Both the position numbers and the translations under genes were made by a program. A stretch of 64,000 nt of DNA from an uncultured Clostridia bacterium (GTDB taxonomy: Bacteria > Bacillota > Clostridia > TANB77 > UBA1234), in NCBI GenBank assembly GCA_934169745.1, contig CAKPOE010000003.1, positions 16,087 through 80,086 on the forward strand. Direction: 5' to 3'. The notes under the pieces were generated by a model. It was not told where the DNA came from. It made no database searches and worked only from the letters and a program-made list of their open reading frames with translations. Each line of letters begins with the position of its first letter. Position 1 is the stretch's first letter. Positions 39,765-50,083 of the stretch are shown here, piece after piece.

Positions 39765-40940
39765 CTACGGTTCACATATAGTACACCAGTTATAAACGCC
39801 TGAAAAGGCTGCTTCTTTTTTGTTAAAATAAATATCTTTTATTTTATTATAATCTAGCTCTTTACCATCATCAGTTCTAACCTTAGCACAGCTCTCTTTA
39901 TGATAACAATTATCTGTGCCACCATAAATATAACTGCCCCTTGTTATTCTAGAACCTCCCAATGCATAATTGTTATAATATTGATTAACTCCTACTGGTA
40001 TTCCTTGAATAAATGAAAGAACAGATATGTCATCAATTGCACTTACCCATTCCGCTTTGCTTATATCTGGAACAGTAAAGTTGTAAGTAACTCCCATTAG
40101 CTCTGCATATGAGTTATGTTCCATAACTTCTTCTTTAAGAGCGGATGTTATAAGATCTGTAATGACTTCTCTGCGCTTTTGATGAAACTCGCCAGCTTCA
40201 GATTTTAGTGCTCCATTTAAATCATATTCATAATCTTTAGTAGGATCACCTTTTGTTAAAAAAGTATCAAAATTATCTCTTATGCCAGCTGTGTTAGTTT
40301 CTGTTTTATATAATATGTATGATAAATCATTTGTCACGTATGCTAAATCTTCAACCTTCATGTCACCATACAAATTTCTTGCTTCTTTTATTTTATCAGA
40401 AACACCATCATCATTATTATATACATTATAGCCTAACACTCCAGAATAAGTTTTTCCTGTCGCATTACAAAACACTTTTACTTCATTTGTTAAAGTAAAG
40501 TTTATCACATTACCGTTACTATCTTTATAAGCGTAAGGTATTTTTGGTTTCAATATATGTTCCACGCCATTTGCGGTTCTTTCAGCTGAATATACGTAAA
40601 ATCCATCATATCCAACAATGATAATTGCAGGAATGTATGCCTGCAAATAAGCATTAGACTCATCGTTAAATGGCAAGTTATAATTAACACACATCGTTCT
40701 AAAAAATTGATTTATTGTTTCTTCACAAAGTGTTGGATTTAATTCTATTTTTTTATCTCCACTTACCTCTGCAACTTCAATAAGCAAATCAACTGCATCA
40801 TAAGTTGCTGTATCAATAGCGTTGTTTATTCTAACTTCATCTTTTAGAGCAACAAATCTAGTGTTAATAATATTTCTGCAAACTAACGAAAATGGAACAA
40901 TGATTAAAACAAATATAATTGTCCAATGTATAATTTTCAT
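39765..40940 (-). CDS. N-terminally anchored large extracytoplasmic protein, last gene of the Tad-like operon (TadG-like/tip-adhesin candidate)
   Basis: 391 aa. Single N-terminal TM. C-terminal Cys-rich end (CYHKESC...WCTICEP). Role is inferred from position only. Confidence 0.4.
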   Translation of the reverse strand: MKIIHWTIIFVLIIVPFSLVCRNIINTRFVALKDEVRINNAIDTATYDAVDLLIEVAEVSGDKKIELNPTLCEETINQFFRTMCVNYNLPFNDESNAYLQAYIPAIIIVGYDGFYVYSAERTANGVEHILKPKIPYAYKDSNGNVINFTLTNEVKVFCNATGKTYSGVLGYNVYNNDDGVSDKIKEARNLYGDMKVEDLAYVTNDLSYILYKTETNTAGIRDNFDTFLTKGDPTKDYEYDLNGALKSEAGEFHQKRREVITDLITSALKEEVMEHNSYAELMGVTYNFTVPDISKAEWVSAIDDISVLSFIQGIPVGVNQYYNNYALGGSRITRGSYIYGGTDNCYHKESCAKVRTDDGKELDYNKIKDIYFNKKEAAFSGVYNWCTICEP

Positions 40941-40949
40941 TAGCGCCTC

Positions 40950-41444
40950 CTATAAAGTAACTGAATTTCTAATCATTCCGCCATAAGGCACACCTACCTT
41001 AAATGAACTTAAACTAGAAGAATACATAAATTCTTTTACCAAAGTAGATTGTGTTTTATTCGTATTCTTTACAGAAACATAGAAGTAATCGCCTTTGTCA
41101 AACACAAATCTATGATCAGAACTTTCTGATAGCTCTTTCTCTATCTGTTCATTAAATGAATATAAGTATCCTATTTGTCCACCTTTTCCATATATCAATC
41201 TTCTACATTCTAACTGAATCTCAAATATATTTCCTGTTGCCGTCAAATCATTTTCTAATTGGTCAAGCATATTTTGCGTAAAATAGCCTGTGTTTCTTGC
41301 ACTGTCAACAAAATCAACCACTTTTGAATATGCAAGCATGTAGGACATATCATCTTGACGTTCCCAAGTGTCCATTAAAGGAAATATGAACATCAATAGT
41401 ACAGCTATAATAAATGTAAATATAATTGTTAATGAATCTTCCAA
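40950..41444 (-). CDS. N-terminally anchored protein of the Tad-like operon (minor pseudopilin-like candidate)
   Basis: 164 aa. Single N-terminal hydrophobic helix then a soluble domain. Confidence 0.4.
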   Translation of the reverse strand: MEDSLTIIFTFIIAVLLMFIFPLMDTWERQDDMSYMLAYSKVVDFVDSARNTGYFTQNMLDQLENDLTATGNIFEIQLECRRLIYGKGGQIGYLYSFNEQIEKELSESSDHRFVFDKGDYFYVSVKNTNKTQSTLVKEFMYSSSLSSFKVGVPYGGMIRNSVTL

Positions 41445-41456
41445 GACTTATTCCTC

Positions 41457-41894
41457 CTATCCTTGCAATCTGTAACTTATTGTATTGCTACTACTGTCAT
41501 ACGAATATGCATATTCGCCTGATAATACTCTCACAGAAAAGTCATACTTATTGATACTTTTTTGTACACCATCAACATATATCTCTTCTTCATTATTAGC
41601 ATTTGGTTTAAAACTAACTGCTTGTATTCCATCTTTATCAAATACTTTTATTTCTTTTATATATAAAGAATTTATATTTATCGCTGATGCAATAACCTCT
41701 GCTTCTGTTATATTACGAGTAGAATATGTATCCGAACCAAATGCAGACTCTGCTCTTGTTCCCATGTCACTTATTACAAGAGATGTATTGGCTGATTCAA
41801 TAATTCTATTATATAAAATCACAGAGGAGGTCATCGCCATAATAAATAGAAGTACTCCAGTCGCCATATACAGCGCCTTTCCCATATTTTCCAT
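41457..41894 (-). CDS. Non-canonical pilin-like protein, paralog 3
   Basis: 145 aa. MENMGKALYMATGVLLFIMAMTSSVILY N-terminus, which is the N-terminal family shared with the two genes upstream. Confidence 0.5.
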   Translation of the reverse strand: MENMGKALYMATGVLLFIMAMTSSVILYNRIIESANTSLVISDMGTRAESAFGSDTYSTRNITEAEVIASAININSLYIKEIKVFDKDGIQAVSFKPNANNEEEIYVDGVQKSINKYDFSVRVLSGEYAYSYDSSSNTISYRLQG

Positions 41895-41915
41895 AGCTCT
41901 TCCCTCCTCTAAATT

Positions 41916-47956: not shown

Positions 47957-48700
47957 CTATGCAGTAAATCTTGCAATCTTCTCTATATTTTTTTCAACTT
48001 TAACAAGTTTGTTTTTTTCTTCGCCCGTTATCAAAGAAACCATTTGAACAATTCCGGCCTTCATGTCTCTCGATAAATATCTGAAGTTTATCTTAGTAGA
48101 GTATTGGTTTTGAATGTTTATTGATAAGTCTCCAGCATCATAAGGCAATACAATTGAATTTACCCAACGTAGCGGAAGATTTTCCGATAAGTTTTCAATA
48201 TATTTTGTATCAGCTGTATTTACGTTTTCACTGTAATACAAAACCTTTGTTAAGTCTACTTCAGCGTCTGTATCTTCTCTTCTCTTAGTCGCACAAATAT
48301 ATTTCAATAATTCAACGCCCTTTACAATGTGCATTTTATCAAATGAAGATACAAAAAATAGGTTATTAGCATTTTTTATATCATACTCTTCACACATTTC
48401 ATCAGAATCAGTATCAATAAGTACATATTCATATTCTGTAAAATCTTCGCCTTTTGAAATTAGATATTTCTTAAGCTCTAAAATATTATTAAACCCAATA
48501 GCTATGTCAATTCCGTCATGTTCAACAATATATTGTGTTTGAAGATTCATACCATTTATAGCAGGAATTGTATACCTTGTCTTTTGAGTTGTTGTTGCAT
48601 CAATAAATATTGTTTTCTTTCCCATTGAAGAAAGCATTTTAGCAACGTATTGAATTAACTCTGTTTTATCCATTTTACCTACAAATCCAACGCTTTTCAT
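47957..48700 (-). CDS. MinD/ParA-fold protein with deviant Walker A (second TadZ/CpaE-like protein)
   Basis: 247 aa. VGFVGKMDKTELIQYVAKMLSSMGKKTIFIDAT is a partial P-loop; LIDTDSD is switch-like. Confidence 0.4.
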   Translation of the reverse strand: MKSVGFVGKMDKTELIQYVAKMLSSMGKKTIFIDATTTQKTRYTIPAINGMNLQTQYIVEHDGIDIAIGFNNILELKKYLISKGEDFTEYEYVLIDTDSDEMCEEYDIKNANNLFFVSSFDKMHIVKGVELLKYICATKRREDTDAEVDLTKVLYYSENVNTADTKYIENLSENLPLRWVNSIVLPYDAGDLSINIQNQYSTKINFRYLSRDMKAGIVQMVSLITGEEKNKLVKVEKNIEKIARFTA

Positions 48701-48765
48701 CTGTATCCTCCTACTTTCTTTTGTTTGCTTTGGGCAACTCTATTGTTGCCCAAAGCGCCATACTT

Positions 48766-50010
48766 TTAATTAGCTTTTTCGCTCGTTTTTTGTGTGTTGT
48801 TCATCAAAGCTTTTAAATATGCTACACGTTCATCTTTTTGTGTTTGAATTTCTTCTGTCAAAGCCGCTTTTACTTTTTCTGCATTTCCGTTTTCTTCAGT
48901 AATTGTTGTATCTGCCATATTTATTCTTTGAGCTAGAATTGCTTCTGTATCAAAGTTTGCTTTTACTTCTTCTAAGATGTTTGGATTAGCTTTGATAATA
49001 TTTAGAACATTTTCTTTTACAGGATAAGTTCTCGCAATCTGCTTATCGTTCACAACAATTTTATGTTTATACATATTTAATACAGTTTCATTCTTTTCGT
49101 TTACTGCTTTTTCAATGTCTTCAACTTCATCTTTTGATAAATCAACTAATCTAACTATATCATCAAAAGATAAATCAGCTCTTGTAACTTTTATTCCATC
49201 TTTTAATGTTGTAAGTTCATCTTCAGTTGCTTCTGGGTTTGTTTGTAAATATGCGTCCCTTGCTTCGTTAAATCTTGTCTCGGTTAAATTTGCAATCAAA
49301 CTTGAAACGGCATTATTATATTTTGCAACGTAATCAACTTCTCTATACTCAAATAATTGATTTGCAGGATCAACATATTTGTTAGCATATAATTTTGTTC
49401 CATCTAATATGTATGCTTCAATAATTGCACTACCAACTGTCAAGATTTCATCTTCTGTTAATCTTATAAATATTGTATTATTTGAATATGCTTCTACCTT
49501 CTTACCAATCAACACACTGTAATCCTCTCCTGATGGAAATCTTACACGTACGTCTATGTAATCGTTCTCAACCAAATCACTTGGCAAAGTAATCATATTA
49601 AATTCTTGAAGTCTTAAATCGATTGTTGGTTCTTTGTCTTCTTCATAGAACATAGCTTCCGAAAGAATCGTATTCTTTCTAGCATTTATCTTTAATCTTC
49701 TACCAACCAAATCCTTCAAGCCTTTTACTTTTTTGGCTGGATCAGCTTTTTCTTCATATGAATCAAGCGGAGCACTAACACTCTTTACTCCGGCTAACTC
49801 TACATCATCAGCTGTTATTACAGAATTTGCAACTCTATCTTCTTTTAGAACATATCTGTTTACTACTTCGCTTTGCTTTTTTAAGTCTTCAATCTCGCCT
49901 CTGTAATTCTTTACAAGAATAAAACCTAGTACACCTAAAACAACAATTGGAATTAAACAAGAAATTACAGCTGTAAGCACAACCTTTCTCTTCATTGGTC
50001 CTACTAACAT
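48766..50010 (-). CDS. CpaB/RcpC-like Flp-pilus assembly protein (N-terminal TM + SAF-like domain)
   Basis: Start placed at M12 (MLVGPMKRK), which has an AGGAGAGG RBS. TM followed by the SAF-like stretch VANSVITADDVELAGV. Confidence 0.5.
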   Translation of the reverse strand: MLVGPMKRKVVLTAVISCLIPIVVLGVLGFILVKNYRGEIEDLKKQSEVVNRYVLKEDRVANSVITADDVELAGVKSVSAPLDSYEEKADPAKKVKGLKDLVGRRLKINARKNTILSEAMFYEEDKEPTIDLRLQEFNMITLPSDLVENDYIDVRVRFPSGEDYSVLIGKKVEAYSNNTIFIRLTEDEILTVGSAIIEAYILDGTKLYANKYVDPANQLFEYREVDYVAKYNNAVSSLIANLTETRFNEARDAYLQTNPEATEDELTTLKDGIKVTRADLSFDDIVRLVDLSKDEVEDIEKAVNEKNETVLNMYKHKIVVNDKQIARTYPVKENVLNIIKANPNILEEVKANFDTEAILAQRINMADTTITEENGNAEKVKAALTEEIQTQKDERVAYLKALMNNTQKTSEKAN

Positions 50011-50054
50011 AATATCATCCTCTCCTCTTCTTTGCATACTCATTCCTATAAATT

Positions 50055-50083
50055 ATAATAACATATGCCACCCCTCTCTTCAA
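50055..50083 (-). promoter_or_regulatory. Candidate sigma-A promoter of the Tad-like operon (TTGAAG-17-TATTAT on the minus strand)
   Basis: Reverse complement of 50078-50083 is TTGAAG; of 50055-50060 is TATTAT; spacer 17. Confidence 0.4.

Follow-up and report, generated by a model that had tools for sequence, protein, structure and literature searches.

The window considered here, a 64-kb stretch of DNA from an uncultured gut Clostridia bacterium, carries a compact cluster of ten co-directional minus-strand open reading frames (ORFs; 39765-50043) that probably encodes the machine for a Tad-type (type IVc-like) pilus, in a highly divergent form belonging to monoderm gut Clostridia. To judge from the family, order and size of the encoded proteins, this is very probably the TANB77 pilus gene cluster of Kim et al. 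(Nat Commun 2024; 15:10726; PMC11680825). The cluster is thus already published for the lineage, and its most interesting point is the maturation of its pilins. The ten genes, in the order in which they would be transcribed, are as follows.

g1, 48766-50043, minus strand: 425 amino acids (aa); CpaB/RcpC-like, with an N-terminal transmembrane (TM) anchor and then a SAF-type domain
g2, 47957-48700, minus strand: 247 aa; putative MinD/ParA-fold protein with a degenerate P-loop
g3, 47114-47941, minus strand: 275 aa; TadZ/CpaE-like putative ParA-fold protein, P-loop lysine absent
g4, 45170-47101, minus strand: 643 aa; membrane-anchored ATPase of the CpaF/TadA family
g5, 42774-45128, minus strand: 784 aa; polytopic platform with about eight TM segments, probably a TadC-TadB fusion
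g6, 42339-42713, minus strand: 124 aa; pilin-like, N-terminus MDNASKALIMAGAILLAVAIVGLGVYLF; candidate major subunit
g7, 41916-42317, minus strand: 133 aa; pilin-like paralogue, N-terminus MENASKALIIAGGILIAIALISL
g8, 41457-41894, minus strand: 145 aa; divergent pilin-like paralogue, N-terminus MENMGKALYMATGVLLFIMAM
g9, 40950-41444, minus strand: 164 aa; conserved N-anchored protein, candidate minor pilin
g10, 39765-40940, minus strand: 391 aa; N-anchored extracytoplasmic protein, candidate tip or minor pilin and adhesin

A first-pass annotation of this DNA, made from the sequence alone, had seen here a divergent Tad/type-IV-filament machine, and this is borne out by a CpaF relative, SAF-domain homologues, a TadZ match, a GspF-like model of g5 and the long helix of g6. 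The oddities that it listed are also real: an anchored ATPase, an apparently fused platform, two ParA-like proteins, pilins unlike Flp, and no A24 peptidase gene nearby. Its suggestion of an undescribed filament or secretion system does not stand, the cluster having been published in 2024 with the same roles (PMC11680825), and homologues being annotated by NCBI as TadA/CpaF or 'SAF domain-containing protein'. Since lengths and gene order agree with those in PMC11680825, the finding is a rediscovery. Eleven genes had been claimed, where the ORF calls give ten; the genes were rightly described as co-directional on the minus strand, but not as mostly translationally coupled, because the gaps between them are 9-65 nt and none overlap, so that they are tightly packed without being strictly coupled.

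Of 129 species in the uncultured order TANB77, 122 have the published cluster, which comprises 10-14 genes; CAG-492 species are among those without it. Its representative (12 genes, 927-938 of HRGM_Genome_2725) begins with a protein that is CpaB-like by structure and has one TM helix (927), followed by a TadZ-like structure (928), a CpaE-like protein (929), a TadA/CpaF of 640 aa with one TM helix (930) and a 693-aa protein with eight TM helices in which TadC precedes TadB (931). Proteins 932-937 are pilin-like, homology not having been found for them, and the last protein, 938, has 621 aa, of which the N-terminal 25% is TadE/PilV-like in structure. All of this is from PMC11680825, where the roles were assigned with AlphaFold2 (AF2) and Foldseek; they agree with those given here. 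The order and lengths of the components in the window fit Table 1 of that paper: first a CpaB-like protein that has a single TM helix, then a pair of ParA-like proteins (about 230 and 280 aa), an ATPase of about 640 aa with one TM helix, a platform of about 690-780 aa with eight, several pilin-like proteins with one TM helix each, and a large last protein. The hosts, uncultured low-GC gut Clostridia, are also alike. The window differs in having a ten-gene variant with a 784-aa platform, three pilins that share the N-terminus MENASKAL, a last protein of only 391 aa, and no 'signal-peptide' ORF. With regard to this ORF, we note that most of the 12-13-gene variants contain an extra gene of about 143-160 codons, with an MKK... 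signal-anchor, among the MENASKAL genes (e.g. locus L067, 15246-15722; locus L014, 6945-7376); this is the counterpart of protein 934 (described as 'signal peptide' in PMC11680825), and is missing from the variant in the window.

Recurrence of the layout in at least 84 species-level loci shows that it is not a matter of chance. The comparative survey that the first-pass annotation had called for found the gene order conserved across these loci. The cluster lies, for example, on the 1.6-Mb contig JBAMQP010000005.1 of the assembly GCA_037069405.1. At least 343 GTDB species genomes encode the ATPase, and the 80 loci that were fetched all came from uncultured Clostridia living in the gut of humans, rabbits, ruminants or chickens, among them Candidatus Merdicola and Clostridium sp. 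CAG:780, genomes that we take to be members of TANB77; the source genome probably belongs there too, and NCBI taxonomy gives 'Clostridia incertae sedis'. The cluster can be regarded as the signature locus of this order, whose abundance predicts the response to checkpoint blockade (PMC11680825). A literature search for follow-up work on TANB77 pili found only citations of Kim et al.

The strongest link to Tad systems is provided by the ATPase. When g4 was compared by phmmer with the sequences in the PDB, the only significant relatives were Caulobacter CpaF chains (E = 7.6e-8, over residues 275-539); its scores on Pfam T2SSE (11.7 bits against a cut-off of 24.9) and NCBIfam TIGR03819 (26 bits against 373) were both well short. 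Alignment with two canonical CpaF proteins showed that the catalytic motifs are intact (Walker A, GEQGCGKTT; the Glu of the Asp-box; the Glu of Walker B; and the His box), and on this evidence g4 is a remote relative of CpaF/TadA. From N- to C-terminus the protein has a TM helix (residues about 8-27), a region of about 265 residues that is particular to the family, the core (about 275-540) and roughly 100 residues of C-terminal extension. The N-terminal TM anchor had been noticed earlier; the accompanying figure of about 300 extra residues was too high, as about 265-275 residues precede the core, where CpaF itself has about 175. At residues about 225-260 lies a family insertion of about 35 residues (RDMNIDG[IV]SGGVSGLPES...), which is kept throughout the ATPase family, plasmid homologues included, and is not found in canonical CpaF. 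Across the 84 loci g4 is 63-84% identical. Close relatives in metagenomes number thousands, some of them named TadA or CpaF by NCBI, and a HMMER scan of 1.84 billion representatives gave 362 clusters (at 50% identity, E < 1e-30), most of which matched from the N-terminal TM segment onward. Members of the family also occur in Paenibacillus chromosomes and in Herbinix. The alternative of a type IV secretion system (T4SS) of the VirB11 type was rejected: there was no family match, and the VirB11-like plasmid ATPases of B. thuringiensis were only 22% identical over half of the protein.

For the roles of g1, g2, g3 and g5 support is weaker or indirect compared with that for g4. Although g1 itself has no Pfam match, BLASTP relates it to plasmid proteins of Thermobacillus and Paenibacillus (E = 1e-25 and 3e-27) that score above the Pfam cut-off for SAF (30.4 and 33.7 bits against 21), and the CpaB/RcpC-type combination of TM anchor and SAF domain would thus hold for g1 by transitivity, in agreement with its earlier description as a CpaB/RcpC-like SAF protein. 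The g1 family profile (like those of g2, g3 and g5, built for PDB searches from 25-41 orthologues) gave a weak match to the SAF region of FlgA (E = 0.47), and hhalign of the g1 family against a single canonical CpaB sequence was not significant. The gene is present in 80 of the 84 loci.

The products of g2 and g3 (present in 82 and 84 of the 84 loci, respectively) would be ParA/MinD-fold proteins of the TadZ/CpaE type, two instead of one, on evidence that is weak but consistent. In g2 the P-loop is degenerate (GxxDKT), its Lys and Thr being retained and its glycines gone; G8, K12, D34 and D98 are among the invariant residues, and the family profile gave a marginal match to MinD in the PDB (E = 0.045) in an alignment that covers the P-loop. 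The P-loop lysine is missing from g3, whose profile gave a marginal match to the ParA-family structure 3ea0 (E = 0.0037), and which had a Pfam CbiA score (E = 0.055) that is below cut-off. When the AAA ATPase occupying the TadZ position in an Alkaliphilus Tad locus was used as a phmmer query against a small local database, the best match in the g3 family had E = 5.9e-6. The claim of two MinD/ParA-like proteins with degenerate P-loops is consistent with the data, though weakly supported by sequence.

The platform is, as had been reported, one 784-aa polypeptide, with about eight hydrophobic segments. Its AF2 model is all-helical and resembles the helical-bundle domains of GspF, PilC and SpoIIIAB, at a low mean confidence (predicted local distance difference test, pLDDT, 66.8) that is probably attributable to a shallow alignment. 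The g5 family profile found no match among PDB sequences, and hhalign comparisons of the family with single canonical TadB and TadC sequences were not significant; for these, as for the corresponding g1 comparison, single-sequence templates are too weak. No internal repeat of the TadB/TadC type could be detected in g5, the one strong match being an overlap artefact.

The three genes that follow encode the putative filament subunits. By profile-profile comparison (hhalign) the g6 and g7 families are related with a probability of 100% (E = 4e-43), and g8 is related to both with a probability of 98-99% over its N-terminal 78 residues or so; on this basis, all three are paralogues. We found 311 such ORFs in 82 of the 84 related loci, at 2-8 per locus. 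They share the N-terminal pattern M-E-N-A-S-K-A-L-[IL]-[IM]-A-G, followed by about 20 hydrophobic residues. Among 287 distinct N-termini, E2 is conserved in 93%, A4 in 94%, S5 in 67%, K6 in 73% (the remainder being mostly D or E), L8 in 92% and A11 in 93%, positions 1-3 and 7 having been partly fixed by the search pattern and the others being free. The glycines at 12 and 24 (in uncleaved numbering) are invariant. Structure prediction had been proposed as a check on the pilin-like proteins and was applied to g6, for which an alignment of 83 sequences gave an AF2 model with a pLDDT of 83.3. The predicted shape is that of a lollipop: the expected long N-terminal helix is there (residues 3-56, 54 residues in all), and is followed by a small head that is alpha/beta. 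A fold search with this model returned no significant matches.

It had been stated that the three proteins lack any cleavage motif. This is right for the G/xxxxE[YF] motif, but not as a general statement, because a conserved, plausible site of the archaeal class III type, K-A↓L, with the cut between A7 and L8, fits the N-termini of g6-g8; across the pilin-like family it takes the form [KR/DE]-[A/G]↓[L/I]. Both g6 and g7 also match an expression of the FlaFind type. The MENASKAL N-terminus provides a handle by which such pilins can be found and counted, and predicts cleavage at Ala7↓Leu8. The idea that these are instead Sec-dependent proteins cut by signal peptidase I was rejected, given the TM-length hydrophobic stretch, the continuous 54-residue helix and the absence of a conserved AxA.

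Each of the last two proteins has its own conserved, proline-containing N-terminal anchor. In g9 (77 of 84 loci) a hydrophobic helix with FP[LM]M is followed by an ERQDD[LM]SY motif; in g10, which ends the cluster in 71 of the 84 loci, the anchor reads MKIxHxxIIFxxIIxPxS..., and the length of the protein ranges from 391 to about 870 aa. No relationship of g9 or g10 to g6-g8, TadE, TadF, TadG or Flp was detected by hhalign. Homologues of both hold the same positions on plasmids (E = 7e-27 to 2e-8 for g9; E = 9e-51 for g10 in Thermobacillus). By position and family, g10 is the orthologue of 'pilin 938', the recombinant form of which activated dendritic cells via TLR4 and improved anti-PD-1 therapy in mice (PMC11680825). 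In that work 938 was made in E. coli BL21, cleared of lipopolysaccharide by Triton X-114 treatment and assayed by its activation of TLR4 (PMC11680825); endotoxin carry-over is an obvious alternative explanation of such a result.

How might these components work together? By homology with Cpa/Tad systems, we suggest that a hexameric, CpaF-like g4, tethered by its own TM helix, would dock on the fused TadC-TadB-like g5, and that ATP-driven movements of this platform could extract g6, g7 and g8 from the membrane by way of the long hydrophobic helix at each N-terminus, to be added at the base of a filament. The products of g9 and g10 may prime assembly and sit at the tip, where g10 would bear a variable, surface-exposed and immunostimulatory domain; g1 could form a collar spanning the envelope, and g2 and g3 may scaffold or position the machine. 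The pilins would most likely be trimmed by an A24 aspartic peptidase whose gene lies elsewhere in the genome. Of all this, the homology and intact motifs of the ATPase, the conserved collinear layout, the paralogy and motif of the pilins and the predicted shape of g6 come from the analysis itself, whereas the roles of g1-g3, g5, g9 and g10, the cleavage of pilins, the forming of a filament and its function are inferences. The probable role of such a filament would be adhesion, to the host, to particles or to other cells.

The proteins are described as exclusive to TANB77 (PMC11680825), whereas we find homologous clusters on Firmicutes plasmids, so the system is not confined to that order: on the sequence evidence, it belongs to a branch of Tad-like systems that is broad within the Firmicutes. 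Among plasmids, tblastn gave 32 records with full-length ATPase homologues (37-59% identity), the hosts including Thermobacillus composti (pTHECO01), Cohnella, several Paenibacillus (including P. polymyxa M1), Alkalihalophilus pseudofirmus OF4, Sporosarcina, Lysinibacillus sphaericus (pBsph) and its relatives, Clostridium beijerinckii, C. argentinense and C. botulinum. On the five plasmids inspected (pBsph, pTHECO01, Paenibacillus polymyxa pPPM1a, C. botulinum pFI1111E1 and C. beijerinckii p1), homologues of g1-g7, g9 and g10 with significant BLAST scores are found in the same order, except that the Clostridium clusters have no g2 homologue. The plasmid clusters have only one or two pilins of the MENASKAL type, against three in the window, and these begin MSTNASKALYF, MNNASSALKV, MGENARKALYM or MGENGRKGLFM. 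What is new here is that several of these plasmid clusters reside in Firmicutes that can be grown and genetically manipulated (Paenibacillus polymyxa M1, Lysinibacillus sphaericus C3-41 and Clostridium beijerinckii), which brings the filament, with its structure and maturation, within reach of experiment.

Downstream of the plasmid clusters there are always genes for an SLH/stalk-domain protein, a DUF5704 protein of 900-1200 aa and a protein with a GGDEF domain, at these positions:

locus L085, 19036-23881: SLH/stalk, DUF5704 and GGDEF genes
locus L086, 15566-19939: the same genes
locus L089, 18581-22727: the same genes
loci L087 and L088, about 19700-23500: the same genes

They suggest a wall-anchored adhesin and control by c-di-GMP, both missing from the TANB77 version. 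A search of the accessible literature for DUF5704 found no mention of it. In C. botulinum and C. beijerinckii a gene for signal peptidase I (lepB) lies a few genes downstream (L087, 23973-24461; L088, 24271-24786).

Might the system have begun as an instrument of conjugation? The R64 thin pilus joins donor and recipient in the transfer of IncI plasmids, and the cluster could conceivably be a mating or DNA-transfer pilus, ancestrally an accessory of Gram-positive conjugative plasmids, with the TANB77 copy domesticated for cell-cell contact or DNA uptake. Full collinear clusters on large Firmicutes plasmids are in keeping with this. On pTHECO01 the cluster is adjoined by a complete Gram-positive conjugation module of the Tcp/ICEBs1 type (L092, 28475-47035), with a coupling protein, a relaxase, a TcpE-family protein, a VirB4-like ATPase and a glucosaminidase (a cell-wall hydrolase). 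Plasmids of the pBsph type, which have been reported to be conjugative, encode VirD4, VirB4 and VirB6 together with the present ATPase (as a 'pilus assembly ATPase'), and in C. botulinum and C. beijerinckii a gene for a cell-wall hydrolase is found among the pilin-like genes (L087, 16240-16998; L088, 16235-16993). However, most of the plasmids, pTHECO01 among them, are labelled non-mobilizable by MOB-suite, an earlier study found no transfer of pBsph, and in TANB77 the cluster is chromosomal, single-copy, near-universal (in the 122 of 129 species mentioned above) and flanked by housekeeping genes, the window containing no T4SS genes. A role in conjugation or cell contact is thus suggested by the plasmid context and not supported by the chromosomal context in TANB77, and we consider it rather unlikely for the cluster as a whole.

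A number of observations weigh against the interpretation of the cluster as a Tad-type pilus machine. The filament has never been seen, the organisms being uncultured. None of the ten proteins scored above a curated cut-off in Pfam and NCBIfam scans, the family searches recommended by the first-pass annotation having been run with this result for every one of them; in particular, g6-g10 have no match to Flp_Fap or TadE, and hhalign comparisons with Flp, TadE, TadF and TadG gave probabilities of at most 4%. The Flp G/xxxxE[YF] site is absent from g6-g8, which have no Glu at +5. The platform g5 has no sequence-level link of any kind to T2SSF, and the confidence of its model is low (pLDDT 67). 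The first seven residues of the pilins are far more conserved than is usual for a disposable leader. Finally, with two peptidases from canonical Tad loci as queries, phmmer found no A24 peptidase at E <= 10 among 3839 ORFs (1.82 Mb) from the 64-kb window, the 84 TANB77 loci and the five plasmid loci (the related clusters being taken with 10 kb of flanking DNA on either side), nor was there one on the complete 149-kb plasmid pTHECO01; as a positive control in that run, each of the two distant A24 queries recovered the other. No polytopic ORF of the window or of the loci contains a GxGDxK motif, the polytopic proteins of the window being MurJ, Wzy, a dicarboxylate symporter (SDF), an FtsX-type permease, PlsY and g5. 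The earlier statement that there is no A24 prepilin peptidase gene is therefore upheld for the 64-kb window.

We know of no characterised type IV filament system that does not require an A24 peptidase. If TANB77 genomes should prove to encode none, the dependence of type IV filaments on this enzyme would no longer be a general rule. The pilins might then never be cleaved, in genomes that have been reduced to the point of having no A24 enzyme: Met1-Glu2-Asn3 and so on to Lys6 would remain in the mature subunit, and Glu2 would take the role played by Glu5 in classical pilins. The conservation of positions 2-5 and 7-8 (92-100%, apart from S5 at 67%), which extends across paralogues and is unusual for a leader, speaks for such an arrangement, as does the failure to find an A24 gene linked to the cluster in any of the 84 species, or anywhere on one whole plasmid, in spite of a working positive control. 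The invariant G12 and G24 would also be close to two positions of classical mature pilins, G14 and P22. Against this, the site fits the class III consensus. In the plasmid pilins A or G (G in C. beijerinckii) stands at the putative -1 position, with K at -2 in four of five cases (S in P. polymyxa); leader length differs by one or two residues between the TANB77 and plasmid versions, with 'NASKAL' fixed, as if it were the cut site that mattered and not the N-terminus. A -1 residue that is only A or G, combined with a leader of variable length, is the pattern expected of a class III site. Moreover, prepilin peptidase genes are often unlinked to pilus genes. Pilins that are never cleaved appear doubtful, and trimming by an unlinked A24 enzyme remains the preferred reading. 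Equally improbable, in our estimate, is the fuller proposal that this is the first type IV filament system without a prepilin peptidase, in which the retained N-terminus would be recognised by the anchored ATPase and the fused platform, and which would form a distinct Firmicutes-wide branch, chromosomal in TANB77 and plasmid-borne elsewhere. In a weaker form of the idea, an archaeal-type class III signal may be processed in these bacteria by a non-canonical enzyme. The N-terminal motif is not mentioned in PMC11680825, where the word 'peptidase' does not occur.

It is very unlikely that the cluster encodes instead a short pseudopilus or secretion device, piston-like or spanning the envelope and exporting proteins across the thick wall in the manner of a type II secretion system (T2SS) or a SpoIIIA-type channel, because the likeness of the g5 model to SpoIIIAB, which comes from a shared GspF-like fold, does not discriminate between the two, there are no other matches to SpoIIIA or T2SS families, the ATPase is specifically CpaF-like, and no conserved candidate substrate gene adjoins the TANB77 version.

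As to its boundaries, the cluster appears to be a unit of its own, as indicated by two features close to its upstream end, and by the absence from related loci of the gene that precedes it:

50055-50083, minus strand: promoter-like site just upstream of g1 (TTGAAG-17-TATTAT with an upstream TG), a match to consensus
50138-50180: terminator-like hairpin with a 19-bp stem, 3' of the preceding gene for a 1576-aa protein

Promoter-like matches across the region are not commoner than in shuffled sequence. The preceding gene (50200-54930, minus strand) encodes an N-anchored protein with MG2, A2M bait-region and A2M domains, and so is a bacterial alpha-2-macroglobulin-like protein; no counterpart was found in any of the 84 related loci, and with the hairpin between it and g1 it was rejected as a member of the operon. 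Downstream there is a convergent VanW gene, whose end is 5 nt from that of g10. Within the cluster, the 65-nt gap between g1 and g2 contains a perfect hairpin (48726-48757; 13-bp stem, seven G-C pairs), which could be an attenuator, or an element for mRNA processing or stability within the operon. The G+C content of the window is about 0.30, and the coding strand changes near 38-40 kb. Two further genes, both unrelated to the cluster, may be recorded: 5959-6324 (minus strand), for a 121-aa holin-like protein (Phage_holin_4_2, E = 8e-17), and 55091-55699 (minus strand), for a 202-aa protein with a C-terminal half that is weakly (sub-threshold) SSB-like.

How, then, does the cluster compare with known filament systems? 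Identity with the ComG, SpoIIIA or T4aP systems was rejected, none of the ten proteins having a Pfam or NCBIfam match to the models for ComGA-G, SpoIIIAA-AH or PilM/N/O/T. Archaeal type IV pili and archaellins have class III signals (processed by FlaK, PibD or EppA); here the host is bacterial, the leader is highly conserved and the structural matches are not significant. An older survey of Gram-positive type IV pili listed tad-like loci that had no recognisable prepilin motif but contained tadV; these are not obviously the family to which the cluster belongs. Compared with the Tad/Flp systems (Caulobacter Cpa, Aggregatibacter Tad), the ATPase is membrane-anchored, with a novel N-terminal domain and an insertion; TadB and TadC are probably joined in one chain; the ParA-like proteins number two; and tadV is not linked. 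There is also no secretin, as expected for a monoderm. The pilins are of 120-400 aa, with an alpha/beta head and no G/xxxxEY site, in contrast to the Flp pilins of about 50 aa. Nevertheless, it is these systems that the cluster most resembles, in having a CpaF/TadA ATPase, a CpaB/RcpC-like SAF protein, TadZ/CpaE-like proteins and a putative TadB/C-like platform, in the N-anchored minor-pilin-like proteins that follow the platform and in the lack of a separate retraction ATPase. The gene order is also alike, that of the cluster (SAF protein, two ParA-like proteins, ATPase, platform, small N-anchored proteins) closely following rcpC-tadZ-tadA-tadB/C-tadE/F/G.

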